Assembly: GCA_034530615.2 (NCBI GenBank)
Contig: JAVRCV020000056.1
Coordinates: forward strand, 13,034-77,033
Length of the DNA: 64,000 bases
Reading direction: 5' to 3'
DNA from: Aulosira sp. ZfuVER01
GTDB taxonomy: Bacteria; Cyanobacteriota; Cyanobacteriia; Cyanobacteriales; Nostocaceae
The notes under the pieces are model-generated. The model saw only the letters and a list, made by a program, of their open reading frames with translations, was not told the DNA's origin and made no database searches. Positions 2,429 to 29,613 of this stretch are shown here, one piece after another. Each line of letters opens with the position of its first letter. Position 1 is the stretch's first letter. The position numbers were made by a program, and so were the translations under genes.

Positions 2429-2468
2429 TTTTCGACTTTTCTCCGTCTTTTCTCCGTCTTTTTTCCGA
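2429..2468 (+). promoter_or_regulatory. 11-bp-period direct repeats, candidate OmpR-family binding site
   Basis: TTTTCGA-CTTT-TCTCCGT-CTTT-TCTCCGT-CTTT-TTTCCGA. Confidence 0.5.
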
Positions 2469-2607
2469 CCCTCAAACTTGATACCAGGCAGTAAAGTAGT
2501 GATAGCCTCAACTTTTTATACAGGAGAAGCGATGTCTACGGTAAGGCAGGCGATCTCTTTCTCCAACTAAATAAACTCTTAATTTACAGTTTTTTTGGAA
2601 AAACAAA

Positions 2608-2856: not shown

Positions 2857-5202
2857 TTAATGCGATAGACCAATAGCAGCTTGATACAAAGATTGAATCT
2901 TTTGCCCATCATGGGGATACTCAACCACAGCACAATTGCAAGCTACTTGAAAGCGATCGCCTCCGGGAATTGTGAATATTTGTTGGCGAAGGGTAGTTAA
3001 AATGTTACCAAGGCGGTCTTTGACTTCTGTTTTTGTTAACCCAGAAATCCCTATTACAAATTCGCCATTGCCCCAATAACCGAGAACTTCACCACTGCAA
3101 AAGGCTGATTGAAATAGGCTACTCCATCTTTGCAATACTTGGTTTCCAGTTTCATGTCCGTACTTGCTATTAATTTGGCGTAACTCAGTCACACTCAATA
3201 TCGCCAAGCAAAGGGAGTGTTGATGTTTCTGGGCTTGAACAATCAACTTTTGTAAGTCGCGGCTAGACTGTAACTGATTTGCTAGTCCGGTTAAAGGGTC
3301 TTTGGTAGAGAGGGATTTAAGTAAGCGGCTGCGTTCTAAGCGATGGGTAATGCGTGCCAAAAGTTCTACCCCGACAACCGGTTTCACCACATAGTCATCT
3401 CCGCCAACAGCAAACACCTGCTGCACGGTTTCTATATCCCGGTGTGCGGTGAGAAACACAATTGGTAATTCCTGCCATTGGGGATCGGTGCGTACTGCTT
3501 GACACAGTTCTATCCCACTGATGTGGGGCATCTCTACATCCAAAATTAATAAATCTGGTGTGGTAGATTGCAGTACCTCCCAGAAACGCAGGGGTTCATC
3601 TAAGCCCACGATCCGCATACCCCAAGGTTCTAACATGGGGCGCAATGCTGCTAAAACTACAGGATCGTCATCTACTACTAATACATTTACCCGCAGAGTA
3701 TGGGTACGCTGTAATAATTGAGATGAACTATCCCAGATTTGAGCAGCTGTTACAGGCTTGGCTAAAAAACCCCGCGCCCCATACTGAGCCAAAGTTACAC
3801 GTTCTACTAGTTCATCAGCAGCAGCTATCACAAGAACGGGTATAGGCGGAGTACGGGTTGCTAACTCTGATAAAAGTGCCAAACTTTCTTGCCGACATCC
3901 CACCTCACCTACATTTAGCACCACTAGATCGGGTGATGTAGTTTGCAATAAGTTTTTTGCATCCTCTAACTTAGTAATTTGCTGCCAGTGAATTCCTAAG
4001 TTCTGAACAAGTTGTTGCAACTGAGAACCCAGTTGCGGATCGGGGTCAATTAGTAGCAGTCGCGTATTAATTTCTTCTACTATCAAATTGGTAGTTAGAT
4101 TCTCAACCTTTTGCCCCATCAAGTTGATTAAGTTACCCAACTCTTGAATTTGCGATCGCAACTGACTTTTTTGGGTTGAAGACAAATCTCCATCTTTGCT
4201 GAGAATCTGTTCAATTTCCCTGGCTATTTGAGTACCAGTTTCTTGCTCAAACATTCCCAAAACGCCAGCTAGCTTATGTGCTTCTTTTTCTGCGGCTTGG
4301 CGTAACTCCTGAGTTAAGTTGCTAGAGAGGGCGGCGGCGGCTTGTTGCAGTACTGCCATCCGTTGCTGCATCAGCCCTGCATATTGATGCCACAACTTAC
4401 TCATGGCTTGGTTGAACTGCTGTTCAATCTTCGAGATTGGTAATTTTTCTTGCTTTCCTCTAGTTACCGTTGTAGGTTCCTGTTTAGTTGATTTCGGGCT
4501 TTCCTGCTTTCCTTGCTCACCTGCTTCTTTTACAGATGGGTTTAATCGATATCCCAAACCATAAACGTTTTCAATCCAGTCTACTGCTCCGGCGGCTTTC
4601 AACTTTTGCCGTAAGCCTTTAATGTGCGATTTTACACTTTCTTCTTGAGGCGGATCGTCAAAAGTCCAGAGATGTTCGATAATGTTCCCGCGGCTGAAAA
4701 CCCGGGAAGGATTGCGGATAAATAGCTCTAGCAGGCTGTATTCTTTAGGTGTTAAATCTAGAACTTTACTGTTAAATGTTACTTCACAACTACTGGGGTC
4801 GAGACGCAATCCCCCAATTTCCAATACTAAGGAAACTGGAGTATCAGCCCGACGTAACAGCGCCCGAACTCTGGCTTGCAGTTCTCCTAAATCTAAAGGT
4901 TTAATCAGATAATCATCTGCACCAGCATCAAGCCCACGAATGCGATCGCTAGTTGCATCTTTTGCAGTCATTAACAAAATGGGAGTAGAATTGCCACTGG
5001 AGCGTAAGCGTTGACATAAGCTAATACCGTCCAGTTTGGGCAATCCCACATCTATTAATATCAAATCGTAGTTATAACTTTGAGTATATTCCCAACCCAC
5101 AGATCCATCTTGTGCGATGTCAACCACATAGTGTTGTTGCGTTAGCGAATTCAATAAGATATTTACTAAAACCTCATCATCTTCGATCAGCAAGATTTTC
5201 AT
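2857..5202 (-). CDS. Multidomain response regulator REC-wHTH(OmpR)-Hpt-REC-REC-degenerate GGDEF (RcaC-like architecture)
   Basis: MKILLIEDD REC; LTPKEYSLLE..IENVYGLGYRL wHTH; AHKLAGVLG Hpt; DPLTGLAN..YWGNGEF degenerate GGDEF. Confidence 0.92.
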   Translation of the reverse strand: MKILLIEDDEVLVNILLNSLTQQHYVVDIAQDGSVGWEYTQSYNYDLILIDVGLPKLDGISLCQRLRSSGNSTPILLMTAKDATSDRIRGLDAGADDYLIKPLDLGELQARVRALLRRADTPVSLVLEIGGLRLDPSSCEVTFNSKVLDLTPKEYSLLELFIRNPSRVFSRGNIIEHLWTFDDPPQEESVKSHIKGLRQKLKAAGAVDWIENVYGLGYRLNPSVKEAGEQGKQESPKSTKQEPTTVTRGKQEKLPISKIEQQFNQAMSKLWHQYAGLMQQRMAVLQQAAAALSSNLTQELRQAAEKEAHKLAGVLGMFEQETGTQIAREIEQILSKDGDLSSTQKSQLRSQIQELGNLINLMGQKVENLTTNLIVEEINTRLLLIDPDPQLGSQLQQLVQNLGIHWQQITKLEDAKNLLQTTSPDLVVLNVGEVGCRQESLALLSELATRTPPIPVLVIAAADELVERVTLAQYGARGFLAKPVTAAQIWDSSSQLLQRTHTLRVNVLVVDDDPVVLAALRPMLEPWGMRIVGLDEPLRFWEVLQSTTPDLLILDVEMPHISGIELCQAVRTDPQWQELPIVFLTAHRDIETVQQVFAVGGDDYVVKPVVGVELLARITHRLERSRLLKSLSTKDPLTGLANQLQSSRDLQKLIVQAQKHQHSLCLAILSVTELRQINSKYGHETGNQVLQRWSSLFQSAFCSGEVLGYWGNGEFVIGISGLTKTEVKDRLGNILTTLRQQIFTIPGGDRFQVACNCAVVEYPHDGQKIQSLYQAAIGLSH

Positions 5203-5939: not shown

Positions 5940-7301
5940 TCATGCTAACCGTTCTGCTACAGTGCGATCGCTAGAAAATAGAGAAAGAAAATTATTATTT
6001 GTGCGTTTGCGTCCCCGTTTCATTTCTTTTTTGATTTCATCGATGTAAGGGCAAAAATCTACCTGCATTGTGTGTCGTTTGGAATTGACATACTGTTTTT
6101 GTGTCAGTCGCCGTTCTTTCTCTATATGGCGCAACATTTCTGCTTTGCTTGGTAAACTGACGTTTCCAGTAATCACTTCAGCAATCCACTTAGATTGCCA
6201 TTCGGCTAAAGGCATAATTGCACCTATGGGTTGCAACAAACCAATAAAGTAAAGATTGGGATGTTCTGGGTGTACAACTCGCTTGTACAGGGGAAATTCA
6301 TTATCTTGGGGATTAATAAACTCTTTGTCAAAAAACGGAAAAGCAATTTTATAACCCGTACCGTAAATAATGATATCTATTGGCAGTTCTGTACCATCTT
6401 CAAAACGCACGCGATCGCCTGCGAGTTCTTTGATGTTTGGTTTGATTTTTACCCTACCGTAGCCCACAAAATTCAGTAATTCTGAGGAGATTGTTGGATG
6501 TTCGCTTAAGAATTTATGGGTGGGATTGGGGAAACCATAAGCTGATTGCGGGCCGCGCGCTAGATATAACAGGATTTGACCATATAATCTTCGTAAGGCT
6601 AATGGCAACGCAAAAAACAAAGGTGTGAGGTAACTATCAAGAGTTCTACCTAAAATGTACTTTGGTAAAACATAGGCACTGCGACGAGTAGAAAGATAAG
6701 TTTGATTTGCCACTCGTGAAGTCTCACAAGCGATATCACAAGCTGAATTACCAACACCTACAACTAGAACATTTTTGTCATCCATCCCTTCTGGAGTTTT
6801 ATAGTCGTGGGTGTGCATTGTCTTTCCCGTAAATTCTCCCGGGAATTTAGGCAAATTTGGACACCAGTGATGGCCGTTAGCCACAATTACTGCACCATAG
6901 CGCTGCGTTCGTTCCCCGTTAGCGTTTTTGATAGTGACATCATAAGTACCATCGCCAACTGGCGCGACACGACAGACTTGCGTTTTGAAAGTGATTTTGT
7001 CTCGAAACCCAAAATGGTCAACATAAGACTCAAAATATTTGAGAACCTGGTTATGATTGGCATACTGCGGGTAGTCCTCCGGCATGGGAAAATCAGAGTA
7101 GGCCATCTGCCCCTTAGATGAATTGATATGCAAGGATTTATAAGCTGAAGACATCCCGTTATCATTCATGTAGCGCCAATTACCACCAATCCCAGAACCT
7201 TTTTCAAAGCAGTCAAAGGCTATGCCGCGCTCGTGTAAGATTTTAGCAGCAGCAATTCCGGATGAACCAGCACCGATAATACAAACGCGATCAAGAATCA
7301 T
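5940..7301 (-). CDS. Flavin-containing monooxygenase (FMO family)
   Basis: GAGSSG, FTGKTMHTHDYK (FxGxxxHxxxYK), GVGNSA. Confidence 0.92.
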   Translation of the reverse strand: MILDRVCIIGAGSSGIAAAKILHERGIAFDCFEKGSGIGGNWRYMNDNGMSSAYKSLHINSSKGQMAYSDFPMPEDYPQYANHNQVLKYFESYVDHFGFRDKITFKTQVCRVAPVGDGTYDVTIKNANGERTQRYGAVIVANGHHWCPNLPKFPGEFTGKTMHTHDYKTPEGMDDKNVLVVGVGNSACDIACETSRVANQTYLSTRRSAYVLPKYILGRTLDSYLTPLFFALPLALRRLYGQILLYLARGPQSAYGFPNPTHKFLSEHPTISSELLNFVGYGRVKIKPNIKELAGDRVRFEDGTELPIDIIIYGTGYKIAFPFFDKEFINPQDNEFPLYKRVVHPEHPNLYFIGLLQPIGAIMPLAEWQSKWIAEVITGNVSLPSKAEMLRHIEKERRLTQKQYVNSKRHTMQVDFCPYIDEIKKEMKRGRKRTNNNFLSLFSSDRTVAERLA

Positions 7302-7401
7302 ATTAGTAATTCCTCAAAATTTGTTATTGTTAATCTTTTTTCTTTTAAATTCTCTGCGGTTCGTAAAAATACAACCTATAAAAGTGATTTGGTATGAATA
7401 T

Positions 7402-8277
7402 TTATTGCTCAGAAATGCATAGCTTCTTTTCTATTATCCAACTTGTCAAAAGATTTTGGTAAGCTAGCGATCGCTCGGCAAAAAATAGATGCCCCATGCC
7501 CTGCAATACAATTAGTTCAGCGTTAGGAATCTGGCTAGTAAGAAATTTTGCGTGTGCAAGAAGGATAATTGGATCGCGATCGCCACTCAAAATCAGTGTA
7601 GGTGCTTGAATTTTGGGTAAGACATGGCTAATATCCATGTCTGCAAACCACTCAAACAAGTCAACAATATTGTTGAGATTGTGTTTGACGGCATCTGGAT
7701 ACACTGCTTCTACTGTTGTTTGTAGAGTAGGTGCATTCCAATAAGCTGCGCGATCGCCTGCGTTAAAACTACACGCCAACTTGTAGCCAGCTTGATTGAG
7801 CATCAACGCTTTGCAGAGAATTTTACAAAGGAATTTACCAATTACACTATTTTGAGTTAGCCTCTGTAACCATCCCAATAAACCGTGCCATTGTCCTTGA
7901 GAAAAACCAGAAATGCAGAAAACACCTTTTATTTGTTCGGGAAAATTAGCCGCGAGGTTTAAAGCAGCAAACCCACCTGTTGAATAACCAACTAAAGCCA
8001 CTGGTTGCTTACCTACCAATTTGTGAATTGCACTCATCAGGATATCGGCTAGCATATCTGCTGTTAATAACTCAGGTTGATAGGAGTCGGGATAATGGCC
8101 AGGCAAACTGAGGGAATACCAAGGAAGATGTTCTCTAACGAGGGGTGGTAAGTTTGCTATCCAAAAATTAGCAGACAGCGTTATTCCATGCAGAAAAATA
8201 ATTGGTATTCCTGGTTTATTTTGATTTGCACCAAGTGATATTAATTGATGTTCGCCAACTTCAATGTACTGTGACAT
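7402..8277 (-). CDS. Alpha/beta hydrolase (possible thioesterase)
   Basis: FLHG, GYSTGG nucleophile elbow, GDRDP, GMGH. Confidence 0.88.
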   Translation of the reverse strand: MSQYIEVGEHQLISLGANQNKPGIPIIFLHGITLSANFWIANLPPLVREHLPWYSLSLPGHYPDSYQPELLTADMLADILMSAIHKLVGKQPVALVGYSTGGFAALNLAANFPEQIKGVFCISGFSQGQWHGLLGWLQRLTQNSVIGKFLCKILCKALMLNQAGYKLACSFNAGDRAAYWNAPTLQTTVEAVYPDAVKHNLNNIVDLFEWFADMDISHVLPKIQAPTLILSGDRDPIILLAHAKFLTSQIPNAELIVLQGMGHLFFAERSLAYQNLLTSWIIEKKLCISEQ

Positions 8278-8734
8278 GAGAAGTAACTAATTCTTTTTCT
8301 GGCTGTATCTTACTTACACGCTGCCAAATTAAGCTACCAACAATCTCAATACCATTGACAAGCATAGGAGGTGTACTCAAAGTAAGTTGTTCGCCATTTA
8401 ATTGTACAAACCGGACTTGATTTACACCTACCCAGTTTTGGAAAAAACTCACTTCCACATGATGAATAACTCGTTCACCTTGAATTTCATAAGTTCCACA
8501 ATAAGAAACATAACTGTCAGTCGCAGCCACTTTTTCTTCCACAGTACCCGCTGCAATATCTCCGGCTTGAAATTGCGGACGGTTCGCTTTCATCATTGCT
8601 ACAGAAACATAGCCATTATCTGTATAAATAATGTAGCCACTGGGGTTATCTCCTAAAGGATAAAAAACTTGACCAGTTTCAGTTCTAGTTTCACAGCTAA
8701 GAAGTTTCCAAGTACCTACCAGATTATTTTGCAT
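8261..8734 (-). CDS. Lipocalin-like domain protein
   Basis: LVGTWKLLS..PSGYIIYT..YCGTY..W pattern of the Lipocalin_5 type. Confidence 0.8.
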   Translation of the reverse strand: MQNNLVGTWKLLSCETRTETGQVFYPLGDNPSGYIIYTDNGYVSVAMMKANRPQFQAGDIAAGTVEEKVAATDSYVSYCGTYEIQGERVIHHVEVSFFQNWVGVNQVRFVQLNGEQLTLSTPPMLVNGIEIVGSLIWQRVSKIQPEKELVTSHVTVH

Positions 8735-8789
8735 TTTGTTGAATATTCTATTTGCTAATTCTGTTTGATGAGTGAAAGCCTGTTAACTT

Positions 8790-9674
8790 TTAATCAATGC
8801 GGCGAAAAGTTAAGCGTAAAAGAAGTAAATCTCCAGTTAAAAAGCCTAGAAGTGCCAGATAAAGATAACGTTCGTAGCGATCGAAAACAGTTTTACCAAC
8901 CAAATTGATGATTTCTGTACGCTTGCTTCTGAAGTTAGTTAACCATGCTTGGAGAGTGCGGACATAATCTAGGCGATCGTTGCGAACTGTAATTACTTCA
9001 AAAATACCTTCTGCAGCGGCGGTAATTTCTGTGAGTCGCGGAGAATCAGATTCGGGAAATATTTCTTGATTAGCAAACTGAGCGCCTAAACTTTTTTGTA
9101 CTTCTTCTGGTTTTCTCTTCCCATAGGCGATAGTTTGAATGGACATCGAACCCCCGGGATTCAACCATTCATAACAGCGATTAAAGAAGGTACGATAAAC
9201 ATCAATTTTTTCCTGGCTGGATAATTCTGGTTTGACAAAATGTTCAAAAGCACCAATAGAAATAATGGCATCAAAAGGCTGTATTGGTGAGTAGTTTAAC
9301 CAGCTTTCGAGATTAACTTCAATTTGAGGATGCTTGTTAGCAGAAATCCAATTCTTTTGAGCTTCACTTAATGTTAGTCCTACAGCTTGCTCAACTCCAT
9401 GCACATCTACTAAACGTTTGAGTACTGTTCCCCAACCACAACCGATATCTAAAACTCGCTTGGCATTCTTGGCTTTAGCTTGATTAATATGAAAATCAAC
9501 TTTTCTAATTTGAGCTAATTCCAGTGCTTCCTCTGGTTCGCCTTCTTCCCAGATAGCACAAGAATAAATCATAGTACTATCTAGCCAAAGTTGATAAAAA
9601 TCATTGCCTACATCGTAATGGTGTTGGATTGCTTGAGGCGAAGCCCCAGGAGTTGCGGTGTTTGCAGTAGTCAT
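8790..9674 (-). CDS. Cyclopropane-fatty-acyl synthase family SAM methyltransferase
   Basis: IQHHYDVGNDFY, YSCA, VLDIGCGWG, ISIGAFEHF. Confidence 0.9.
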   Translation of the reverse strand: MTTANTATPGASPQAIQHHYDVGNDFYQLWLDSTMIYSCAIWEEGEPEEALELAQIRKVDFHINQAKAKNAKRVLDIGCGWGTVLKRLVDVHGVEQAVGLTLSEAQKNWISANKHPQIEVNLESWLNYSPIQPFDAIISIGAFEHFVKPELSSQEKIDVYRTFFNRCYEWLNPGGSMSIQTIAYGKRKPEEVQKSLGAQFANQEIFPESDSPRLTEITAAAEGIFEVITVRNDRLDYVRTLQAWLTNFRSKRTEIINLVGKTVFDRYERYLYLALLGFLTGDLLLLRLTFRRID

Positions 9675-9716
9675 GATGTTTATGTTTGTGATTAATCGAT
9701 ATGTTGAGCTAAAAAT

Positions 9717-10028
9717 CTAGAGCGCAATTTTAAGTTCTGTTGTGCCTGCTGCTAAACGTTGTGACAAAACTTCGATACTGGGTAAGTCATATAATAAAGT
9801 TGGCGATAAATCCTGTCCGATTAAACTTTCTAAATGGGAAATCAAACTGACTGATGATAATGAATCTAAACCGTATTCATTAAACCGAGCTTTAATATTA
9901 ACTTGATGTGGCTCAACTTCTAAAATTTCGGCAATATAAGCAACTATCGATTCTTGAATTACCTCTGCACTCAGAGTATTTTTTTGAGAGTCTAAGGCAT
10001 TATTAGTAACAGTACTGGTGAGTTCCAT
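9717..10028 (-). CDS. Acyl carrier protein
   Basis: YGLDSL phosphopantetheine motif, LLYDLPSI. Confidence 0.9.
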   Translation of the reverse strand: MELTSTVTNNALDSQKNTLSAEVIQESIVAYIAEILEVEPHQVNIKARFNEYGLDSLSSVSLISHLESLIGQDLSPTLLYDLPSIEVLSQRLAAGTTELKIAL

Positions 10029-10074: not shown

Positions 10075-10108
10075 AGATTAGAGATAAATCGGGGAGAACT
10101 AGGGGAGA
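10075..10108 (-). promoter_or_regulatory. Direct-repeat operator plus -10 upstream of ACP gene
   Basis: Minus strand TCTCCCC-TAGT-TCTCCCC-GATTTATCTC-TAATCT. Confidence 0.75.
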
Positions 10109-10235
10109 AGAATACCAGGTGTAGATTTTAGATTTGGATTGCAAGTAATCGCCTTAAAGCTAAAAGCCCACATAGGTGGGCTAAATGTGAAAAACAACTG
10201 TTATGCTCTGCGCAACCGTATAAGAAGTTACATCA

Positions 10236-11249
10236 TTAGTCAAAAGCTTGAGAATTCCATAAACGCCGCCAAGCTTCTGTAATTGTTAATTGATTATAGT
10301 CTTGAGGAAAGTGCTTTTTCAGCAGATCGCTGACTAATGGATAGTAAGAAGGATGCATTGCTGGAAATAGATGATGTTCGGTGTGATAAGAGAAATTGTT
10401 ATGAATCAAATTGAACAAGGGAGGTACTGTTACAGATGTAGTACCTTGCACAGAATTATTTTGCGCTTTTATAGGATTGAGGAAATGATTCGTCGCTACA
10501 TAAATGACTTCAATCACTGAAGCAATCAATATAGGTAATATCCCAACAAATAAGTACTTTAACCAGTTACATTGAACGGCTGAAAAAATTATAGTCTGGA
10601 TTAAAATGATAATGCCTGTTTCAATAATAATTGAGAATTTTTCTTTGAGAGTATATGGTACTTGATAAGGAACTATATACAGCTTGCTTTTTGGTGAGAT
10701 AAAAACAGCTATGAAATTACGCAAGATGTAAAAGACAAAGTGAATATAGGCGAAAGGATTAATGAATCTTAGTAGTAATTTGTTTTTCTGCGGATAGAAG
10801 ATCCAAGTATAAATCCATTTAATACAAGTTTTTTCTGAAGTTAACCATCGCCGATCGGGGTCTTTAAATGTTGCTGCATTAGGATGATGCGTTCGATGAT
10901 GAATATGTATCCACATCGTTAGAGGGATAAAATTTATTCCCCACACTAACACTTCTAGAAAATGTCTCTGCCAAGATTTTGCCATAACTGAGCCATGACT
11001 CAAATCGTGACCAAAAAAAACTAGACCTGGCAAGCAATTTCCTGACAATAAACTTGCAAGTAAAAATATCCAAATATTATTGGAGTAGTGTGTTAAGGTA
11101 ATTGCTGAGATAAATAGCGAAAAATTAGCCAGAAAATACCAGAGATAACTTGGCTTTTTTTGAAAAGCTTCTTTAGGTAAAAAAGGACGGATGGTTTGAA
11201 TATAGTATTGATCTGTATGTGTTAGGGGCTGTTGCTCTGTCGTATTCAT
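10236..11249 (-). CDS. Membrane fatty acid desaturase
   Basis: His boxes HDLSH, HIHHRTHH, HTEHH. Confidence 0.9.
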   Translation of the reverse strand: MNTTEQQPLTHTDQYYIQTIRPFLPKEAFQKKPSYLWYFLANFSLFISAITLTHYSNNIWIFLLASLLSGNCLPGLVFFGHDLSHGSVMAKSWQRHFLEVLVWGINFIPLTMWIHIHHRTHHPNAATFKDPDRRWLTSEKTCIKWIYTWIFYPQKNKLLLRFINPFAYIHFVFYILRNFIAVFISPKSKLYIVPYQVPYTLKEKFSIIIETGIIILIQTIIFSAVQCNWLKYLFVGILPILIASVIEVIYVATNHFLNPIKAQNNSVQGTTSVTVPPLFNLIHNNFSYHTEHHLFPAMHPSYYPLVSDLLKKHFPQDYNQLTITEAWRRLWNSQAFD

Positions 11250-11308
11250 AATTAAATTCTGCTTCGCTGATTATAGATTTGCTTTTGAAGAGCTAGAACT
11301 ACACTTAT

Positions 11309-12277
11309 TTATAGCAATCGCACGCTTTTTGATTGCATCATTTCCGGTGTAGGTTGATTCACATCCCAAACTAAACCTAGACTCTGCAATACCACAATTA
11401 CCCAATAGCCAATGTCAATTTGCCACCATTGCAACCCAAATTTAGCTGAGTTTTGAAAAGCGTGATGATTGTTGTGCCAAGATTCGCCAAAAGTAGGTAA
11501 AGCCAGCCAAAGATTATTTGTGCTTTTTTCTTTGGTATCAAAACTACGAGTACCATAAAGATGGCAAATTGAGTTAATGCACCAAGTTGTGTGCTGTCCT
11601 AAATATAGACGAATAACTCCACCCCACAAAAAACCATGCCAAGCACCAATCCAATTTCCTGTAAGAATAAAAGCGACAACCGCCGGAAAAACCAGACCCA
11701 AAATCACCCAAACAAAATACAGTTGGTTAAGCTTGCAAATTGTTTTGTCTCGTAGCAGTTCCGGTGCATAGTAAAGTGGGTTGGGATAATCGTACTCAAC
11801 TTTCCACCACAGATGAGCGTGCCAAAATCCGGAAAGCTGATTGCGCCAACCTGTACCGTGTAAATGTGGAGAATGGGTATCCCCAACCTCATCACTATAG
11901 CGATGGTGGTGTCTGTGGTTAGCAACCCAAGAAAGCACAGGGCCTTCCGCACCTGTGGAACCGAGAATTACTAGCAGAATCCGAATAATTGGATGTGCTT
12001 GAAAAGCACGATGGGTAAAGTAGCGGTGATAGCCAACGGTAATTCCTACAGAGGTGAGAAACCACATCCCTAGAAACACTGTGATATCAACTATACCGAT
12101 TGGCTTGCCCCATAAACAGGCGATCGCTAAAATAAACCCAACAAAAGGTAGAACATCACACAATAAAAAATGACGCTTTTGCAACAACTTAATGTAGCTG
12201 TTGCTCATGGTTTTCTTCTTTAATAAATCAGTAGCACGATTAATTGATGCAGATTCAACGCTAATACTGGTTTCCAT
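11309..12277 (-). CDS. Delta9-type acyl desaturase (possible JamB-like acetylenase)
   Basis: GYHRYFTH, HRHHH, GESWHNNHH. Confidence 0.9.
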   Translation of the reverse strand: METSISVESASINRATDLLKKKTMSNSYIKLLQKRHFLLCDVLPFVGFILAIACLWGKPIGIVDITVFLGMWFLTSVGITVGYHRYFTHRAFQAHPIIRILLVILGSTGAEGPVLSWVANHRHHHRYSDEVGDTHSPHLHGTGWRNQLSGFWHAHLWWKVEYDYPNPLYYAPELLRDKTICKLNQLYFVWVILGLVFPAVVAFILTGNWIGAWHGFLWGGVIRLYLGQHTTWCINSICHLYGTRSFDTKEKSTNNLWLALPTFGESWHNNHHAFQNSAKFGLQWWQIDIGYWVIVVLQSLGLVWDVNQPTPEMMQSKSVRLL

Positions 12278-12317
12278 ATTCCCAACTTTGATAACTGATG
12301 CAAGATTTATGCAGAGC

Positions 12318-12401
12318 TAGGGTGTGTTATGCCGTAGGCTAACGCACCATCAAAAATTCAAGCTGCGTCGGTGCGTTGCGCTGCGCGACAACACACCCTA
12401 C
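12318..12401. repeat. REP-like palindromic dispersed repeat
   Basis: TAGGGTGTGTTATGCCGTAGGCTAACGCACC...GGTGCGTTGCGCTGCGCGACAACACACCCTA; near-identical copy at 43135-43211, partial inverted copy near 26145-26177. Confidence 0.8.
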
Positions 12402-12406
12402 TGCGA

Positions 12407-14173
12407 TTATGCAGATAAAGGATGATTTACACTTGCAACTGGCGCTAAACTTGGCAAAATCTCTAATTTCTGAGCTAAAAACTGCTCTCTGCAAGCATAG
12501 CGCTGGATTTTACCGCTAGAAGTTTTCGGGAGAGTGGCTGTTTTAATCAACGCTACAGTATGAATCTGTAACTCATGCTGTTGTAAAACCGCTTGCCGAA
12601 TTTTCCCTACCACTTCTGCAACGTTGAGATGGCGCAGATATTGTCGCTCAACTTCTTGCACAATTACTAGCCGTAGTACATTTTCGCGCTCAATGGTAAA
12701 AGCTGCACCAGCGCCAAGTCTGAGGGATGGATGAGCTTGAGCAACTGTTAATTCGATATCGTGGGGATAATAGTTGCGTCCCCGAATAATGATTAAATCT
12801 TTGATACGTCCTGTAACGAAGAGTTCGCCTTGATGTAAAAAGCCTAAGTCTCCTGTGCGTAAAAATGGCCCTTGTTGGCTATCTGCCAAGTATGCTTGGA
12901 AATATTCTTTTGTAGCTTCGGGATTATTCCAGTATCCTTGAGCGACACTAGCACCTGACACCCAAATTTCTCCGACTTCATTGGGCGAACATGGAGTTAA
13001 AGTTTCTGGATTGACAATGACAACTTGCAGATTTGCTAAACTTTGCCCACAACTCACAAGATTTTGGCTATCAAGATGATTATCGCTAGGAATCACTTGA
13101 TGCTGTTTCAAAGCTTTTTCCGCTACCGTTTCCACAATGGGTAAAGCGGCTTTATCTCCCCCAGCAATAATCAGCGTAGTTTCTGCCATCCCGTAACAGG
13201 GATAAAACGCTTCGCGACGGAAACCACAAGGTGTAAATAGAGTAGCAAACTGCTCCATTGTTTCTGCGCGTACGGGTTCCGCACCATTAAAAGCAACTTC
13301 CCAACTGCTCAAATCGAGAGTGGCACGTTGTTCTGGGGTAATTTTACGCACACATAAATCATAAGCAAAGTTGGGGCCGCCACTGGTAGTTGCTTGGTAA
13401 CGCGAAATCGCTTGCAACCAGTAAAAAGGCTTTTGTAAGAAAATCATTGGCGGCATGAGGAAGACGGAAAAACCACCGTAAAGCGGTTGTAAAATACCGC
13501 CAATCAAGCCCATGTCATGGTAAGCAGGTAGCCAAATAACACCCCGACTCTCTGGAGAATGCTGAAACGATTGATAAATTAAAGAGGAATTGTGCAGTAA
13601 ATTAGCGTGGCTGATCGTCACACCTTTTGGTGTGGAGGTGGAGCCAGAAGTGTACTGTAAGAAGGCGAGGGTATCACTACTAACTTCCACTCGTCGCCAA
13701 TCTTGCGCCCAATTGTTATCTAGGTTATCGGTAGCTTGCCATTGTAGCGATCGCAAATCCGCAAACTCTTGTAACTGCGGCTGAACCAGGGCTAAAACCG
13801 CTTTAGTTGTGAGTGCAATCTTAGCTTGAGCATTCGCTGCGATCGCTTGTAGTCGTGAGATAGATTGATTGGGGCGCGGAGGATAAGCCGGAACCGCAAC
13901 TGCACCTGCATACAAACAGCCAAAGAAAGCCGCAGCAAAATCTAATCCTGGTGGATAAAGTAATAAAACTCGCTCTTGGTAGGCTTTTTGGCTTTGCAAA
14001 TATGCTGCGATCGCTTGGGCTTTTTGATGTAATTCCCTATATGTAAAACTGCTATCTTCAGTAATCCCATCTGCAAGGAAGGTATAAGCTGTTTGCTGCG
14101 GCTGATGGCTGGCTCGATACTCCAACAGATCTACCAAAGTAGTCACGCTCGCATCGATTGATGTATGTCTCAT
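12407..14173 (-). CDS. Fatty acyl-AMP ligase (FAAL)
   Basis: LAFLQYTSGSTSTPKGV, WLPAYHDMGLIGG, PCYGMAE, FLRTGDLG, KTSSGKIQR. Confidence 0.93.
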   Translation of the reverse strand: MRHTSIDASVTTLVDLLEYRASHQPQQTAYTFLADGITEDSSFTYRELHQKAQAIAAYLQSQKAYQERVLLLYPPGLDFAAAFFGCLYAGAVAVPAYPPRPNQSISRLQAIAANAQAKIALTTKAVLALVQPQLQEFADLRSLQWQATDNLDNNWAQDWRRVEVSSDTLAFLQYTSGSTSTPKGVTISHANLLHNSSLIYQSFQHSPESRGVIWLPAYHDMGLIGGILQPLYGGFSVFLMPPMIFLQKPFYWLQAISRYQATTSGGPNFAYDLCVRKITPEQRATLDLSSWEVAFNGAEPVRAETMEQFATLFTPCGFRREAFYPCYGMAETTLIIAGGDKAALPIVETVAEKALKQHQVIPSDNHLDSQNLVSCGQSLANLQVVIVNPETLTPCSPNEVGEIWVSGASVAQGYWNNPEATKEYFQAYLADSQQGPFLRTGDLGFLHQGELFVTGRIKDLIIIRGRNYYPHDIELTVAQAHPSLRLGAGAAFTIERENVLRLVIVQEVERQYLRHLNVAEVVGKIRQAVLQQHELQIHTVALIKTATLPKTSSGKIQRYACREQFLAQKLEILPSLAPVASVNHPLSA

Positions 14174-14910
14174 TTGACGCCTACCAATTCAGGTTTAGCA
14201 GTAATTTTCTCACCTTGCCACTTAATAGCAGCTTCCAGTTCTGAACCTAAGTAGGGACGAATATTTAATTCAGCCCGAATTTCTTCTAAAGGTTTTTCCC
14301 ATAATGTATTCCAAGGAACGCCAAACAGAGGTTGTGCTTGTTGTCCCATAATCCAGCCGCGCACAAAAGCTTCCATGTGCTGACTGCACAAATCCATATC
14401 TTCAATCGCAGTTTTGAGGAAATTTTTCGCCAGTAACACCACCCAAAAACGAGCAGGATAAAACTGAGTCAAAGAAAATGTCTCTACTTGAATTTCTCCA
14501 GCTTTGTCTGTATTGCTACCAGTAACCACGTGCCAGATATCATGCGTTTCCATCACATAATTGAACAAATATCTATAGGTATCTGATGTATGTTCGCGCA
14601 CTGGCGGCGGAGTTAATCTGTTTCTCAGCATGTGATCGGCGTAAATATAGCCAAAGGTGTTGGTAGGTAATTGATGGAGTTGCTGTAAATCAATCTTACC
14701 CAGGAGCTTTTTTTCAGCTAGGGCTATTCTTCCCCGTTCCGTGCGAGAGAGAAACTGCACAATTTGATTGAGACTCTTGGGATCGATTGCTGCATCAGAT
14801 AAATTGCCACCTGCGCCAAAGGAACCGTAAGGTAGCTGGACAATGCGCATGAAGCGATAGGCGAATATCAGCTTTTTTAGCTCTTTTTTGAGATTTTGTA
14901 GAATTTGCAT
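14170..14910 (-). CDS. Coq4-family metalloprotein
   Basis: LHQLPTNTFGYIY, ETHDIWHVVTG..GEI (HDxxH..E); stop overlaps FAAL start (ATGA). Confidence 0.8.
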   Translation of the reverse strand: MQILQNLKKELKKLIFAYRFMRIVQLPYGSFGAGGNLSDAAIDPKSLNQIVQFLSRTERGRIALAEKKLLGKIDLQQLHQLPTNTFGYIYADHMLRNRLTPPPVREHTSDTYRYLFNYVMETHDIWHVVTGSNTDKAGEIQVETFSLTQFYPARFWVVLLAKNFLKTAIEDMDLCSQHMEAFVRGWIMGQQAQPLFGVPWNTLWEKPLEEIRAELNIRPYLGSELEAAIKWQGEKITAKPELVGVK

Positions 14911-14943
14911 TTGATTGATCTCCCAGCGATGCTTGTGTTTTTT

Positions 14944-15006
14944 AAGTTAAAGAGCGATCGGGGAGAACTAGGGGAGAAATGAGAATCAGATGAGAAGAAG
15001 ATGAGA
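14944..15006 (-). promoter_or_regulatory. Direct-repeat operator plus -10 for the coq4-FAAL operon, with a second 11-bp-period array upstream
   Basis: Minus strand TCTCATC-N4-TCTCATC-N4-TCTCATT, then TCTCCCC-TAGT-TCTCCCC-GATCGCTCTT-TAACTT. Confidence 0.75.
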
Positions 15007-15030
15007 GAGTTAAGATTGTAGGAGCACTTC

Positions 15031-15061
15031 AGATCCCCGACTTCTTGAAGAAGTCGGGGAT
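15031..15061. repeat. Palindromic dispersed repeat or terminator
   Basis: ATCCCCGACTTCTTGAAGAAGTCGGGGAT; degenerate relatives near 23741-23771 and 54584-54615. Confidence 0.6.
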
Positions 15062-15089
15062 ATAGGCAACCATTCTTGCTTAAGTTATA

Positions 15090-15482
15090 TCAACTCTCTA
15101 TTTCGCTATAAGCCCAACCCAATACTTCACTGATTTGCCCTGCCAGTTTTAAAGGACGAAAAGGCTTGGCAAATATAGCGGCTACATCTAATCCAGTAAA
15201 GCAGTCTTGATCTGAATCTTGAACTTTGGCAGTGAGTAAAATTACTGGAATTTGCTGAGTAACAGGGTTAGCCTTTAATTTTTGCAAGGTGGCACGCCCA
15301 TCCATATCAGGCATCATCATATCTAGCAGGATGACATCAACTTGTGAGTTGGCAGCTATATTCAACGCTTCCCGTCCAGAACAAGCCGTCAACACATTCC
15401 AACCAGCACCCAATTCTAATCCCAATTTAGCGATCGCCTGCACATCTTCTTCATCATCAACAATCAAGATATTTCTGCTCAT
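15090..15482 (-). CDS. Single-domain response regulator (RcaF/CheY-like)
   Basis: MSRNILIVDDEED, ILLDMMMPDMDG, LTA, KPF; ATG at 15482 preferred. Confidence 0.9.
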   Translation of the reverse strand: MSRNILIVDDEEDVQAIAKLGLELGAGWNVLTACSGREALNIAANSQVDVILLDMMMPDMDGRATLQKLKANPVTQQIPVILLTAKVQDSDQDCFTGLDVAAIFAKPFRPLKLAGQISEVLGWAYSEIES

Positions 15483-15534
15483 GGTGCCATCCTTGCATGA
15501 TATGTGATGCTGACTAGCTTGATTACCTGGAGCT

Positions 15535-15568
15535 ATTCTAAAATGCAATCGGGGAGAAGTGGGGGAGA
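15535..15568 (-). promoter_or_regulatory. Direct-repeat operator plus -10 upstream of REC gene
   Basis: Minus strand TCTCCCC-CACT-TCTCCCC-GATTGCATTT-TAGAAT. Confidence 0.75.
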
Positions 15569-15587
15569 TTGAAGCAGCGATTAGTTG

Positions 15588-17117
15588 CTAATTAGAGACA
15601 GCTAAAGGTAAAAGTACATAAAAGGTGCTACCTTCCCCTAAAACGCTTTGAACCCAGATTTTACCGTTATGTTGCTGCACAATATTCCGGCAAATCGCCA
15701 GTCCTAAACCTGTTCCGCCTTTGTTGCGAGAATCAGATGCATCTACCTGCTGAAAGCGCTCAAAGATAATTTGTAATTTATCTTCAGGAATTCCTCGCCC
15801 TTCATCTCGAATAGTAATCAACAGGTAGCTGGGTGTATCTTTTTGAGACTCAACACCTTGATTTTCTGAAAGTGTCGCACCGATCCAAACAGTATCCCCT
15901 GGTTCCGAAAACTTAATCGCATTGCTGAGTAAGTTAGTCAAGGTTTGCAAAAGGCGATCGGAATCTGCCCAAAGTTCAACTGCTAAAGGATTAACAATTA
16001 GTTTGACTTGGAGTTTATCTGCCATTGCTTGCATGGCTTCTGTTGCTGTAATCAGCAGTTCAGCAGCGTTGCACTTGCCCATACGCATGAAGATTTTGCC
16101 CGATTTCATCCGTTCTAAATCGAGAATATCGTTCACCAAACGAATTAGACGTTCCGTGTTATTGGTAGCAATGCTCAAAACTTTTTGTCCCTGTGCAGTT
16201 AAAGTTCCTAGTTGTCCTGCACCCAATAAATCTAATGCTCCCATTGTTGAAGTTAAAGGTGTACGTAACTCATGACTGACTAAAGAAATAAACTCGTTTT
16301 CTAGGCGTTTGCGTTCGGTGATGTCATTGGCAATTAATAAAGCGCATGGTACTCCCGCTAGATCAATTAATTCGATAGAAAGTAAGATGGTTTTGATTTC
16401 GGCAGATTTGGTAGAAAATTCAAATTCCAGATTGTACAGTGAACCACTATCAGGTAAACGTTGAATTGTTTGGGCGATCGCTGCTGTATTTTTACCTAAA
16501 TCGAGTTCTGCAACTGTATGTCCAATTACCTCTTCTAAACAATAGCCACTCATTTTTAAGAAGCTGGGATTGACATCAAGAACCCGCGCTTCCGAAATTG
16601 TGGCGATCACGATCGGGTTAGGACTAGAACGAAAAACTTTAGCAAACTTCTCTTCGGCTTTAGCGCGCTCTCTTATTTCTTGCTGTAACTGCTGATTTTG
16701 CGCTTGGAGTTGCTTTTGGAGTTGGCGAATCGTCAAGTGATTTTCAATTCTGGCTAAAACTTCTTCTAGTTGAAAAGGCTTAGTAATATAGTCAACCCCG
16801 CCAACTGCAAACGCCTTCACCTTATCCAACACATCACCCAAAGCGCTGATAAAAATTACCGGAATCTCACAAGTGCGATCGCTTGTCTTTAATTGTTGAC
16901 AAACTTCATAACCATTCATCTCTGGCATATTCACATCTAGCAAAATCAAATCAGGAGGAACTGCATTTGCTCCCCGCAACCCTGTAGAACCTTTAGTCAC
17001 GCTGCGAACTTTATATCCTTGTTCGGTCAGCATCGCAGATAAAAGATTTAGATTTTCCGGTGTATCATCAATTACCAATATGTCTGCTTTCGGAGAGTTG
17101 GATAATTGTTTGGGCAT
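15588..17117 (-). CDS. Hybrid histidine kinase REC-PAS-HisKA-HATPase
   Basis: ILVIDD REC, PAS, SHELRTPL, NAIKFS, DEGRG, GGTGLGL. Confidence 0.93.
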   Translation of the reverse strand: MPKQLSNSPKADILVIDDTPENLNLLSAMLTEQGYKVRSVTKGSTGLRGANAVPPDLILLDVNMPEMNGYEVCQQLKTSDRTCEIPVIFISALGDVLDKVKAFAVGGVDYITKPFQLEEVLARIENHLTIRQLQKQLQAQNQQLQQEIRERAKAEEKFAKVFRSSPNPIVIATISEARVLDVNPSFLKMSGYCLEEVIGHTVAELDLGKNTAAIAQTIQRLPDSGSLYNLEFEFSTKSAEIKTILLSIELIDLAGVPCALLIANDITERKRLENEFISLVSHELRTPLTSTMGALDLLGAGQLGTLTAQGQKVLSIATNNTERLIRLVNDILDLERMKSGKIFMRMGKCNAAELLITATEAMQAMADKLQVKLIVNPLAVELWADSDRLLQTLTNLLSNAIKFSEPGDTVWIGATLSENQGVESQKDTPSYLLITIRDEGRGIPEDKLQIIFERFQQVDASDSRNKGGTGLGLAICRNIVQQHNGKIWVQSVLGEGSTFYVLLPLAVSN

Positions 17118-17308
17118 CGCAATCTTAGCTTGAGCCAGAATCGGCTACGTAATTGTGAATAAAAATTCTAACGTTAATTTCTTAGCTTAATAATCCTTTA
17201 TAAAAACTTCTTCATAGCTTTATCGTAAATAAAAGGGTTTAAGACCCCTACTTCGATACGTAGCATCAGTTTCAGTCGGGGTTTAAATCCCCGTCTGAAA
17301 ATATCTTT

Positions 17309-17347
17309 AATTTTGAATTTTGAATTTTGAATTTTGAATTTTGAATT
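17309..17347 (+). repeat. STRR heptamer tandem repeat (AATTTTG)n
   Basis: About five tandem copies; also at 26522-26547. Confidence 0.85.
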
Positions 17348-17354
17348 GTTAATG

Positions 17355-17388
17355 TCTCCCCCAGTTCTCCCCGATTGTTTTTTATTTT
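17355..17388 (+). promoter_or_regulatory. Direct-repeat operator plus -10
   Basis: TCTCCCC-CAGT-TCTCCCC-GATTGTTTTT-TATTTT. Confidence 0.72.
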
Positions 17389-17427
17389 GAAAACATCAAG
17401 CCAAAAGTTTAATTCCTGACTAATAAT

Positions 17428-17973
17428 ATGACAAATCAACAAATATCTTCTTTACCAAAAACCGCCCGTCTTTTTGCTGCTTTGGGTTTAACTCTCAGTG
17501 CTAGCCTTTTTGTTTACCCTAGTACCAGTCAAGCAGGTAAAAATGGTGGGGCGATACCTGCTGAACTCCAAGGTGAGTGGCTTTACGGTCGAATTTCTTC
17601 TATCCAATACCAAGACCAAATTACAGGACAGTCAGCAGCACCGAATGGTTCGAGCGATCGCTTCCTAGTCGCAGCTAACGGTAGCTACCAGCGACAAAGG
17701 TTAATTCAAATCAACACCTACAACTGTGCGTCTAACCTCTTCATACAAGAGAAAGGTAAAGTTAGCGCTGACGATCGACAACTCACCTTCCAACCGACTG
17801 AAAGCTCATCTAAAGGGCAAATCTGCAATACTGGTCGCACTTACTCTGGAAAGAACACAGCCAAGCCTGAAACCTACGCTTGGTCAATCTCTAAAAACGA
17901 ATACGGACAAGAAGTCCTCTTGCTTCAGACTACCGATGGTCAGGGTCAAGCTCATTATGGACGACCTCAGTAG
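17428..17973 (+). CDS. Secreted hypothetical protein, possibly a lipocalin-like beta-barrel
   Basis: Signal peptide ending SQA; ELQGEW motif; beta-rich; two Cys. Confidence 0.7.
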   Translation: MTNQQISSLPKTARLFAALGLTLSASLFVYPSTSQAGKNGGAIPAELQGEWLYGRISSIQYQDQITGQSAAPNGSSDRFLVAANGSYQRQRLIQINTYNCASNLFIQEKGKVSADDRQLTFQPTESSSKGQICNTGRTYSGKNTAKPETYAWSISKNEYGQEVLLLQTTDGQGQAHYGRPQ

Positions 17974-18069
17974 CTCAGTCACACAATTTTGGATTTATTC
18001 CGAGATAAATTTGCTTTCTCTAAGCTTGTTTAAATTTTTAAATCTAAAATTCGCTAGCAATTAGATTTT

Positions 18070-18103
18070 TCTCCCCTAGTTCTCCCCGATTGTTTCTTAA
18101 TCT
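18070..18103 (+). promoter_or_regulatory. Direct-repeat operator plus -10
   Basis: TCTCCCC-TAGT-TCTCCCC-GATTGTTTCT-TAATCT. Confidence 0.75.
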
Positions 18104-18129: not shown

Positions 18130-18612
18130 ATGATTCACCATATTTCTTTTGCTGTTAACAACCCTCAACACGTTGCCCAAGTTTTGGCAGAAATTTTAAA
18201 AGCAGAAGCTGTTCCATTTCCTCCTCACCCAGGTAGCTATATGGTTATACCTTTTGATGAACATGGTACAGCCATTGAACTTTATCCTTTAGGTACTCAA
18301 TTAGAACCTGGTGAAGGTGATGGACAATGTGCATTTGTACAAAATTCTATTTCTCCTAAGTTCGTAGATATTCATGCAGCTATTTCTGTACCTGCTAGTC
18401 AAGAAGAAATTCAAAAAATTGGTGCGCGTGAAGGTTGGCGTGTTGTACGCTGTACCCGTGAAACTTTTTTTGATGTCATTGAGTTCTGGGTAGAAAACAG
18501 ACTTATGATCGAACTGCTAACACCAGAAATGGCAACTCAATACGTAAAATTTACAACTCACCCAGAAACTCGAAAAATATTTACGGCAGAACCTGCTTTA
18601 GCCACAGCATAA
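18130..18612 (+). CDS. VOC/glyoxalase-like protein
   Basis: MIHHISFAV..AIELYP..HAAISV..VIEFW..MIELL metal-ligand pattern. Confidence 0.7.
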   Translation: MIHHISFAVNNPQHVAQVLAEILKAEAVPFPPHPGSYMVIPFDEHGTAIELYPLGTQLEPGEGDGQCAFVQNSISPKFVDIHAAISVPASQEEIQKIGAREGWRVVRCTRETFFDVIEFWVENRLMIELLTPEMATQYVKFTTHPETRKIFTAEPALATA

Positions 18613-28113: not shown

Positions 28114-28155
28114 AGAAGCGTTATCCTAATATAACTTGATAACTAGCGCATTAGT

Positions 28156-28413
28156 TCTCTTCTGTTCACCGAGCCTGTAGACCTGTTAATCGGTAACTCC
28201 TACGGTAAGTACCTGTGGCGCGATTGTAAGGTTCCCCTCGTAAGAATTGGCTATCCCATCATGGATCGTCACCACCTGCACCGCTACAGCACCATCGGTT
28301 ATCAAGGTGTAATCAACCTCCTCAACTGGGTTGTTAATACAATCTTCGAGGAAATCGATCACAACACTAACATTCCTTCTAAGACCGACATTTCCTACGA
28401 CTTGATTCGTTAA
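28156..28413 (+). CDS. nifK: 3' fragment of nitrogenase MoFe protein beta chain (interrupted gene)
   Basis: SLLFTEPVDLLIGNSYGKYLWRDCKVPLVRIGYPIMDRHHLHRYSTIGYQGVINLLNWVVNTIFEEIDHNTNIPSKTDISYDLIR*; no start codon; not in ORF track. Confidence 0.95.
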   Translation, partial: SLLFTEPVDLLIGNSYGKYLWRDCKVPLVRIGYPIMDRHHLHRYSTIGYQGVINLLNWVVNTIFEEIDHNTNIPSKTDISYDLIR

Positions 28414-28438
28414 GAATCACATTCACTCGCGACGTGTC

Positions 28439-28492
28439 TAAAAAGTAAAAAGTAAAAAGTTAAAAAGAAATATCTTTTTACTTTTTACTTTT
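28439..28492. repeat. STRR-type (AAAAAGT)n inverted array forming a hairpin after nifK
   Basis: AAAAAGT repeats followed by ACTTTTT repeats. Confidence 0.7.
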
Positions 28493-28515
28493 TCCTCGTA
28501 CCTGAAGTATTGATT

Positions 28516-28860
28516 ATGGAAACTATCACCAAACATCACTCTCATTCTCATCCTCATCCTCAGCCTAACTACCATCCACCCAACTATAAACGCTCTGGTA
28601 CTTTTGATATCTTGAATCCCTTGCGTCGGTTGGTTGATGGCATTACAGTAAAAAATGCTCGTTTTGCCCATATAATTTGTCAGGTAATACCTTGCTGTTG
28701 TCCCTTTGAGCGCAATATTCAATTATTAGGCAAGACTTTTCATATTCCCGCACTGTGCAAACTCAATCCTTTGTATGATGAGTTTGTGATGTTGCGTTTT
28801 CGTGCGCTCTCTTATCTTGCAGATGAATGTGGAGAGGATGTCACAAAATACATTTGTTAG
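28516..28860 (+). CDS. Mo-dependent nitrogenase C-terminal domain protein
   Basis: ICQVIPCCCPFER..IPALCKLNPLYDE..LRFRALSYLADECGED; sits between nifK and nifE. Confidence 0.85.
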   Translation: METITKHHSHSHPHPQPNYHPPNYKRSGTFDILNPLRRLVDGITVKNARFAHIICQVIPCCCPFERNIQLLGKTFHIPALCKLNPLYDEFVMLRFRALSYLADECGEDVTKYIC

Positions 28861-28989
28861 AAATTAGTTGCTACTCATTACTCATTACCATTAGTCAAAA
28901 GTCATTAGTCATTGGTTATTAATTATTAATTATTAGTTATTCAAATGACAAATGACAAATAACAACTGCCATCCAGCAAGAGAAGAGAG

Positions 28990-29553: not shown

Positions 29554-29613
29554 CAACACTTACAACCACACCTTGTTATGATATGATTTTGGGACTGATT
29601 TAAATAAATTCCC

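Follow-up and report, generated by a model that had tools for sequence, protein, structure and literature searches.

Known regulator-box systems and the window

RcaC is a multidomain regulator with the layout REC-wHTH-Hpt-REC (wHTH, winged helix-turn-helix), found together with the kinase RcaE and the lone REC protein RcaF in a phosphorelay locus that governs phycocyanin genes; the half-site of its L-box is TTGCACA. CcaR, a protein of 225 amino acids (aa) that acts through the G-box in type 2 chromatic acclimation, is encoded beside phycobilisome linker genes. The present work concerns a promoter element of related build, a five-copy box containing TCTCCCC-N4-TCTCCCC, in a stretch of 64,000 nucleotides from the cyanobacterium Aulosira sp. 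ZfuVER01 (Nostocaceae; GenBank assembly GCA_034530615.2, contig JAVRCV020000056.1, positions 13,034 to 77,033). This whole stretch is referred to as the window, and coordinates are given within it unless another contig is named. The reading favored here, with a probability of about 85%, is that an adjacent RcaC-like regulator (encoded at 2857-5202) would bind the box in tandem and activate transcription in the manner of PhoB, following a relay from PAS kinases through a lone REC protein whose own gene carries the box for feedback.

The pho box is built of a pair of 7-bp repeats separated by 4 bp, the 11-bp period being a hallmark of OmpR/PhoB regulators (PMC4415409), and pho boxes of Escherichia coli are located 10 bp ahead of the -10 (PMC1906773). 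The window box shares the 7-4-7 repeat, the 10-bp distance to the -10 and the co-orientation with the gene, but differs in half-site, in signal and in having a four-protein relay. The initial annotation had compared it with the L-box, as the same 7-4-7 geometry with a different sequence. This description is correct, but the nearest known box is the G-box of CcaR, which has pho-box geometry. In register, the G-box printed in PMC8256508 reads TCTTTCC-GATT-TCTTTAC, as against TCTCCCC-TAGT-TCTCCCC-GAT in the window. Both systems use an 11-bp direct repeat and the same cyanobacterial OmpR-class wHTH subfamily (58% identity to the ccaR-like gene of the same genome). They differ at half-site positions 4-5 and in the recognition helix, which has Val in CcaR and Ser in the window regulator. 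Furthermore, the window regulator is multidomain and its putative targets are biosynthetic, whereas those of CcaR are phycobilisome genes, and the G-box of the Aulosira genome has no TAnnnT at offset 10, unlike the window box.

The likeness to the RcaC system lies in the 7-4-7 repeat and in the combination of a linked kinase, a lone REC protein and a regulator of REC-wHTH-Hpt-REC layout with the conserved Asp and His residues, all of which are present as in RcaC-like multidomain regulators. However, the half-site TCTCCCC is unrelated to TTGCACA, and the window regulator has an extra REC and a degenerate GGDEF domain.

The remainder of the genome contains further members of this wHTH subfamily, namely six RcaC-like and two shorter proteins; gene names (rca, ccaR, cpcB2-like) were assigned by reading the translations. 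On contig C28, an L-box stands before cpcB2-like genes, 15 kb from an rcaE-rcaF-rcaC-like locus. A G-box match adjoins the ccaR-like gene, and a TACCC repeat surrounds another OmpR gene. Assigning a box to the neighboring regulator thus recovered two known regulator-box pairs (rcaC-like/L-box and ccaR-like/G-box), and the window box is neither of the two. RcaC as the binder, and with it membership of the L-box regulon, was rejected, since the RcaC-like locus and the L-box lie on C28 and the wHTH domains are 46% identical, outside the clade. Membership of the CcaR/G-box regulon was also rejected, as the G-box match and the ccaR-like gene sit on contig C36 and not at the window box. The H box of Hrr1 (PMC13079394) was set aside as another 11-nt repeat.

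Two additional repeats were observed in the same genome. At C52:158906 (-) (L237), AAACCGC-TTAA-AAACCGC-GAT lies between an RcaC-like gene and a 1470-aa kinase plus REC, and is a third candidate box of the family. A second exact L-box at C6:25967 (-), with TAGGCT at offset 10, precedes a 338-aa non-phycobiliprotein gene, which is a possible extra target of RcaC.

The five-copy promoter element

The five copies reported in the initial annotation were all recovered at the coordinates and on the strands given there, with 0 mismatches, and 100 shuffles of the sequence yielded 0 matches. The exact TCTCCCC-N4-TCTCCCC pattern occurs five times in the 8.03-Mb genome, within one 8-kb stretch. The spacer, on the other hand, is not free, as had been assumed. 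It reads YA(G/C)T and the second half-site is followed by GAT in 5/5 copies, so the element amounts to a nearly invariant 21-mer. The full element is TCTCCCC-YAST-TCTCCCC-GAT-N7-TAnnnT, a tandem direct repeat with an 11-bp period. The hexamers TAATCT, TAACTT, TAGAAT, TATTTT and TAATCT each lie exactly 10 nt past the second half-site. Between box and ATG there are 62, 49, 68, 55 and 42 nt for boxes 1 to 5. When the 21-mer plus TAnnnT was sought in the whole genome, nothing beyond the five sites appeared at up to 2 mismatches, and 3 mismatches added a single weak site. A chance origin, or derivation from common Nostoc repeats, is ruled out by the shuffles and the genome scan. The regulator and both kinases have no box upstream (best 9-10 of 18), and the cargo units contain none; over all these regions together, the best scores were 8-10 of 18.

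The distribution scan, with one genome per species, returned at least 139 loci, many of them overlapping, and 131 cyanobacterial titles among the matches listed, to which the following counts also refer. Two classes of box were distinguished: class A, with the YAST spacer, and class B, consisting of (TCTCCCCGATT)n arrays that adjoin a gene for a 225-aa OmpR protein. Although the TAnnnT hexamer is not part of the class A search pattern, it stands at offset 10 in 151/155 class A sites, and in 19/23 once similar flanks are removed; elsewhere in the range of offsets 4 to 19, no single offset has it in more than 2 of the 23 non-redundant sites. Class B arrays have it at offset 10 in 0/12. In the loci long enough for annotation, 2/101 sites fall inside long open reading frames (ORFs).

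The promoter layout bears on the direction of control. The box overlaps the -35 position, and RcaC is described as an activator or a repressor according to where its site lies (PMC8256508). The adjacent regulator might bind the box and repress, blocking the -35 region until a signal releases it. Such blocking would not need the fixed 10-bp register to the -10, which polymerase contact does need. The box itself occupies the -35 position, and its geometry is that of activating pho boxes. Repression is accordingly considered very improbable, and activation by the regulator is retained.

These features identify the box as a real cis-element, a member of the OmpR/PhoB box family nearest to the G-box, that would serve an unstudied RcaC-like clade. 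The open literature, searched by motif strings and for RcaC, L-box and G-box, Nostoc lanthipeptide regulation and the lipid cargo, contained no description of it; subscription papers and closed supplements were outside this scope.

Another repeat with an 11-bp period, TCTCCGT-N4-TCTCCGT-N4-TTTCCGA, was seen at 2437-2470 (+), just beyond the 3' end of the regulator gene. It faces a short ORF, roughly 65 codons long, near position 2607, and the exact TCTCCGT pair is unique in the genome. It is possibly a site for a related regulator.

The regulator that accompanies the box

The proposal that the box is an activator site of the regulator at 2857-5202 is supported by co-occurrence, physical linkage and co-variation of helix and box. 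Within the window, this regulator (wHTH at residues about 126-225, recognition helix ESVKSHIKGLR) is the sole DNA-binding protein named by Pfam among the 19 proteins scanned (2.8-31 kb). Across 61 relatives, the clade wHTH is matched at E<=1e-43 in 19, the exact pattern is present in 14 and the class A box in 12. Where the wHTH is at least 87% identical, the exact box occurs in 12/13 genomes, and the remaining genome (G027) has copies ending in TAT; six relatives with a wHTH 72-81% identical carry variants of the box. The exact class A box is present in 0/42 relatives without a clade wHTH match, and looser patterns left four regulator-less genomes (G009, G019, G033, G049) blank. In a set of 401 genomes of the order, the box was found in 6, all of them within the 29 that have a clade match. 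The five best protein matches of this set are all box-positive, and the sixth box-positive genome ranks 17th. A quick tree of 67 rows groups the clade regulators as one (49/67 rows, support 100), apart from RcaC-like and CcaR-like proteins, and both the presence of the box and its base at position 4 track the regulator across host families.

A minor competitor for the box is the stand-alone OmpR protein of a CHASE3-kinase pair on contig C33, the adjacent RcaC-like gene then being a bystander or sharing the job. Its recognition helix, ETVKSHIKSLR, is almost the same as that of the regulator, and its family, of which the Aulosira genome has a member, flanks the (TCTCCCCGATT)n arrays in Stigonema, Phormidesmis, Desertifilum and others. 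However, the sites surrounding the C33 gene itself read TCTACCC/TACCCGAT, and the class B arrays lack the -10 register described above. The family is present in 21/61 genomes, nine of which (G017, G018, G024, G029, G030, G032, G033, G042, G048) have neither the exact box nor the clade regulator, in a survey where 48 candidates were scored per genome and misses are therefore unreliable. The family also leaves the C/T switch described below unexplained. This assignment is regarded as unlikely, although a little less so than repression, and the RcaC-like regulator remains the preferred binder.

Around the C33 pair of CHASE3 kinase and 225-aa OmpR gene, four (TCTACCCGATT)n clusters were observed (C33:100185-106080, L236), and (TCTCCCCGATT)n is found at the equivalent place in relatives (L003, L006, L017, L021, L028, L074, L076). 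These arrays are a candidate second regulon without a -10 at offset 10.

Recognition helix and box position 4

Regulators whose helix contains VKSHIK (Ser) neighbor TCTCCCC, while those with VKAHIK (Ala) neighbor TCTTCCC or TCTTCTC at the same -10 spacing. The exact T-box is present in 5/401 genomes, with no overlap with the C-box genomes. When one mismatch is allowed, the five Ala genomes show the T-type in 5/5 and the C-type in 0/5, and the T-type is found in 0/5 Ser genomes and 0/4 regulator-less genomes; 26/39 T-type sites have TAnnnT at offset 10. The Ser/Ala residue aligns with Val197 of PhoB, the best PDB match of the wHTH, and Val197 touches thymine (PMC3973317). The CcaR-like protein of the Aulosira genome has Val at the same helix position, and its G-box has T. 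The change from Ser to Ala with that from C to T was probably one evolutionary switch. In some Ala-type genomes (L204, L226, L263), unlike in the window, the box stands directly before the regulator gene, an arrangement that suggests autoregulation there.

Several points weigh against the assignment of the box to this regulator. The Ala rows of the quick tree form one clade with a support of only 80. Helix and box thus probably changed together just once, and any linked gene would show the same pattern. Single T half-sites in Ser genomes (L234, L280) indicate that the C/T code is not strict. The T-pattern was loosened after the data had been seen; the looser patterns in general were also picked after the data were seen and were applied to few regulator-less genomes, and the protein search of the 401 genomes scored 12 candidates per genome. 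Two genomes have T-type boxes, one in G171 and two in G220, without a clade regulator (best wHTH 57-60%, C-terminal 43%), which may reflect a cassette remnant, an assembly gap or another binder. Finally, the near-identical helix of the C33 family, together with its member in the Aulosira genome, makes cross-binding possible. In G171 and G220 (L227 and L228, respectively), a T-type box adjoins a big kinase.

The same data bear on whether the 21-mer has anything to do with the regulator, or is instead either a copied repeat or the upstream part of promoters read by an alternative sigma factor. Few transcription-factor sites are as highly conserved, and the intergenic DNA of Nostocales is rich in CCCC repeats. 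However, the common repeats of this genome have a 9-bp period and not the 11-bp period that marks OmpR/PhoB sites (PMC4415409), the flanks vary between sites, and in different host families both the occurrence of the box and its base at position 4 go with the regulator. Of the explanations competing with binding by the regulator, this is the least probable.

Signaling genes, cargo and conserved cassette

Table 1. Boxes, signaling genes and cargo of the window (Pfam, assignment by Pfam; REC, receiver domain; ACP, acyl carrier protein; FAAL, fatty acyl-AMP ligase; FMO, flavin monooxygenase).
Feature	Coordinates	Strand	Description	Basis
Box 1 with -10	10075..10108	(-)	TCTCCCC-TAGT-TCTCCCC-GAT 10088-10108; TAATCT 10075-10080; before the ACP-CMAS-lipocalin-hydrolase-FMO unit, which it may drive	
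Box 2 with -10	14944..14977	(-)	box 14957-14977; TAACTT 14944-14949; before the Coq4-like-FAAL-desaturase-desaturase unit, which it may drive	
Box 3 with -10	15535..15568	(-)	box 15548-15568, spacer CACT; TAGAAT 15535-15540; before lone REC gene	
Box 4 with -10	17355..17388	(+)	box 17355-17375, spacer CAGT; TATTTT 17383-17388; before 181-aa gene	
Box 5 with -10	18070..18103	(+)	box 18070-18090; TAATCT 18098-18103; before 160-aa gene	
RcaC-like regulator, 781 aa	2857..5202	(-)	REC(D51)-OmpR wHTH-Hpt(H309)-pseudo-REC-REC(D555)-degenerate GGDEF	Pfam + motifs
Second lone REC, 122 aa	5481..5849	(+)	divergent from regulator; only some relatives have it	Pfam
Cargo unit B	5940..10028	(-)	ACP 9717-10028; CFAS/CMAS methyltransferase 8790-9674; lipocalin-like 8261-8734; alpha/beta hydrolase 7402-8277; FMO 5940-7301	
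Cargo unit A	10236..14910	(-)	Coq4-like 14170-14910; FAAL 12407-14173; membrane desaturases 11309-12277, 10236-11249	
Single-domain REC protein, 130 aa	15090..15482	(-)	putative RcaF-like relay	Pfam
REC-PAS-HisKA-HATPase kinase, 509 aa	15588..17117	(-)		Pfam
181-aa protein	17428..17973	(+)	no Pfam family; hydrophobic N-terminus; conserved cassette member	
160-aa protein	18130..18612	(+)	no Pfam match; conserved cassette member; relatives labelled 'VOC domain-containing' in UniRef	
Multi-PAS/GAF hybrid histidine kinase, 1573 aa	18804..23525	(-)	proposed sensor	Pfam

The features of the locus are listed in Table 1. The presence of a box before the gene of the 130-aa lone REC would make this protein a feedback point; the upstream scan of the second lone REC gene gave no box. 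The 181-aa protein is likely exported, judging from its sequence, and against the Atlas it matched only unnamed clusters. The pathway logic of the cargo points to a lipid product: an ACP-bound fatty acid that would be desaturated, methylated or cyclopropanated, released and oxidized. The fischerazole fsh cluster (PMC13548996) resembles the window in cargo only: by enzyme description, both have a FAAL, an ACP, a membrane desaturase and a CFAS/CMAS enzyme for modifying a fatty acid carried on the ACP. Unlike fsh, the window cargo has no polyketide synthase (PKS), nonribosomal peptide synthetase (NRPS) or halogenase.

Comparison of gene maps reveals a conserved cassette consisting of the big kinase, the REC-PAS kinase, the REC protein, the regulator, a cupin and the 181-aa and 160-aa genes, in which the cargo is swapped. 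The lipid-pathway cargo is also found in Tolypothrix tenuis PCC 7101, Calothrix membranacea FACHB-236 and Nostoc flagelliforme FACHB-838. Nif11 precursors, LanM and NHLP exporters make up the cargo in many Nostoc and Fischerella. Further boxed genes in relatives encode a subtilase, a thermolysin-type protease, GH44, an ATP-grasp (graspetide) maturase and an NRPS-neighboring gene. The local regulon that the initial annotation had envisaged is therefore strictly local in the Aulosira genome itself, but in relatives some remote genes bear the box as well, among them lanthipeptide, graspetide-maturase, protease and NRPS/PKS-associated ones.

Other genes of the window were observed outside the cassette. 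A secreted-looking ORF fragment (556-1320, (-)) and a von Willebrand A-like gene (1-560) lie upstream of it. Two serine recombinase genes stand amid nif genes at 26551-31020, and a nifE-like ORF (28990-29586) ends abruptly just ahead of the second of them.

Relation to nostolanthin clusters

In Nostoc punctiforme, the lanthipeptide clusters ripp3 and ripp4 (nostolanthin, nlt) are induced by contact with Blasia, and a reporter with 614 bp from upstream of ripp4 responds to contact; such clusters carry a homologous two-component system, NltR1/NltR2 (bioRxiv 10.64898/2026.08.14.744816). The main text of this preprint names no binding site for the regulator. Nostoclide and nostovalerolactone induce ripp3 and ripp4 among other clusters (PMC9324945).

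Boxed precursors at the loci found here match the core motif of the preprint, including those of Nostoc sp. ChiSLP01, a strain that its text names. A search of 121 genomes at E<=1e-45 gave 1 match, genome G450 (locus L280/L281). Its core has 18 residues, with the published Ser/Cys/Asn/Thr positions, whereas the preprint text says 19 residues; after three dehydrations, the computed mass is 1920.749, as against 1920.75 published for nostolanthin A. The locus contains the whole cassette with five boxes. Between REC and the first precursor lie 614 bp, the same length as in the published contact-inducible reporter, and this region has an exact box at a distance of 120 bp from the ATG. Compared with the window, this nlt-type cluster is 73% identical in the regulator, 65-71% in the multi-PAS kinase, 86% in the REC-PAS kinase and 79% in REC. 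The linked Nif11 precursor, LanM and three transporters of the nlt module are absent from the window, which has the lipid pathway instead. The preprint text calls its response regulator PAS-containing, a description that suits the REC-PAS kinase better than it does the wHTH protein. G450 has four LanM clusters; two of them are boxed, and the second of these two is predicted to be ripp3.

Nostolysamide NpuA (PMC13060382) was considered and rejected, its 25-residue four-Cys core being unlike the boxed precursors. A second boxed Nif11 precursor family, in which the nostolanthin core motif is absent (Lys-Leu-Cys-His-Thr type), was observed with the same cassette in L004, L009, L015, L030, L061, L063 and L070. 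In the lanthipeptide cluster of L070, an LCAT-family acyltransferase gene (L070:3725-5263) lies between LanM and a boxed HlyD gene and is a possible lipidation enzyme.

Proposed mechanism and significance

In the mechanism favored here, the multi-PAS hybrid kinase, along with the REC-PAS kinase, would sense a small signal that reaches the cytoplasm. Phosphate would then move through the lone REC protein to the Hpt/REC domains of the regulator. A head-to-tail pair of wHTH domains would occupy both 11-bp units, at about -40 to -20, replacing the -35 element, and bring in RNA polymerase in the manner of PhoB. Co-induction would extend to the lipid units, both accessory genes and the relay REC, the last providing feedback. 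The cassette is portable, and would serve a FAAL-ACP-desaturase-CMAS modified-fatty-acid pathway here and nostolanthin-type lanthipeptide clusters in many Nostoc. Since sensor and box stay constant when the cargo changes, the signal is probably something other than the product of the cargo. The two papers suggest host contact or density signals.

A wider interpretation joins these observations and is put forward tentatively, at somewhat below even odds. The box would be the output of a portable phosphorelay that senses host contact and cell density, which Nostocales place before unrelated natural-product clusters. It would also be the cis-element through which the ripp4 reporter answers Blasia contact and nostoclide/nostovalerolactone, which would account for the co-induction of ripp3. 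The helix residue Ser, Ala or Val would set C or T in the box, a readable code of the RcaC/CcaR family.

Nostoc turns on cryptic lanthipeptide clusters at contact with a plant host or in response to its own density signals, and the text of the two papers, as far as accessible, names no DNA site or pathway for this. The box as the likely landing site of the regulator would explain how the lipid and lanthipeptide clusters switch on. With a 21-bp target in a region of reporter length, a named regulator and a point mutation, the switching-on of symbiosis-linked clusters becomes directly testable. The box also provides a scan pattern for co-regulated cryptic clusters (lipid, lanthipeptide, graspetide, NRPS/PKS and proteases), expression of the regulator is a route to activating boxed cryptic clusters, and the C-type and T-type boxes, as a candidate orthogonal promoter pair, could complement the widely used CcaR system. 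If the wider interpretation is true, the lipid cluster of the window would respond to the same trigger and make a lipid for symbiosis or competition.

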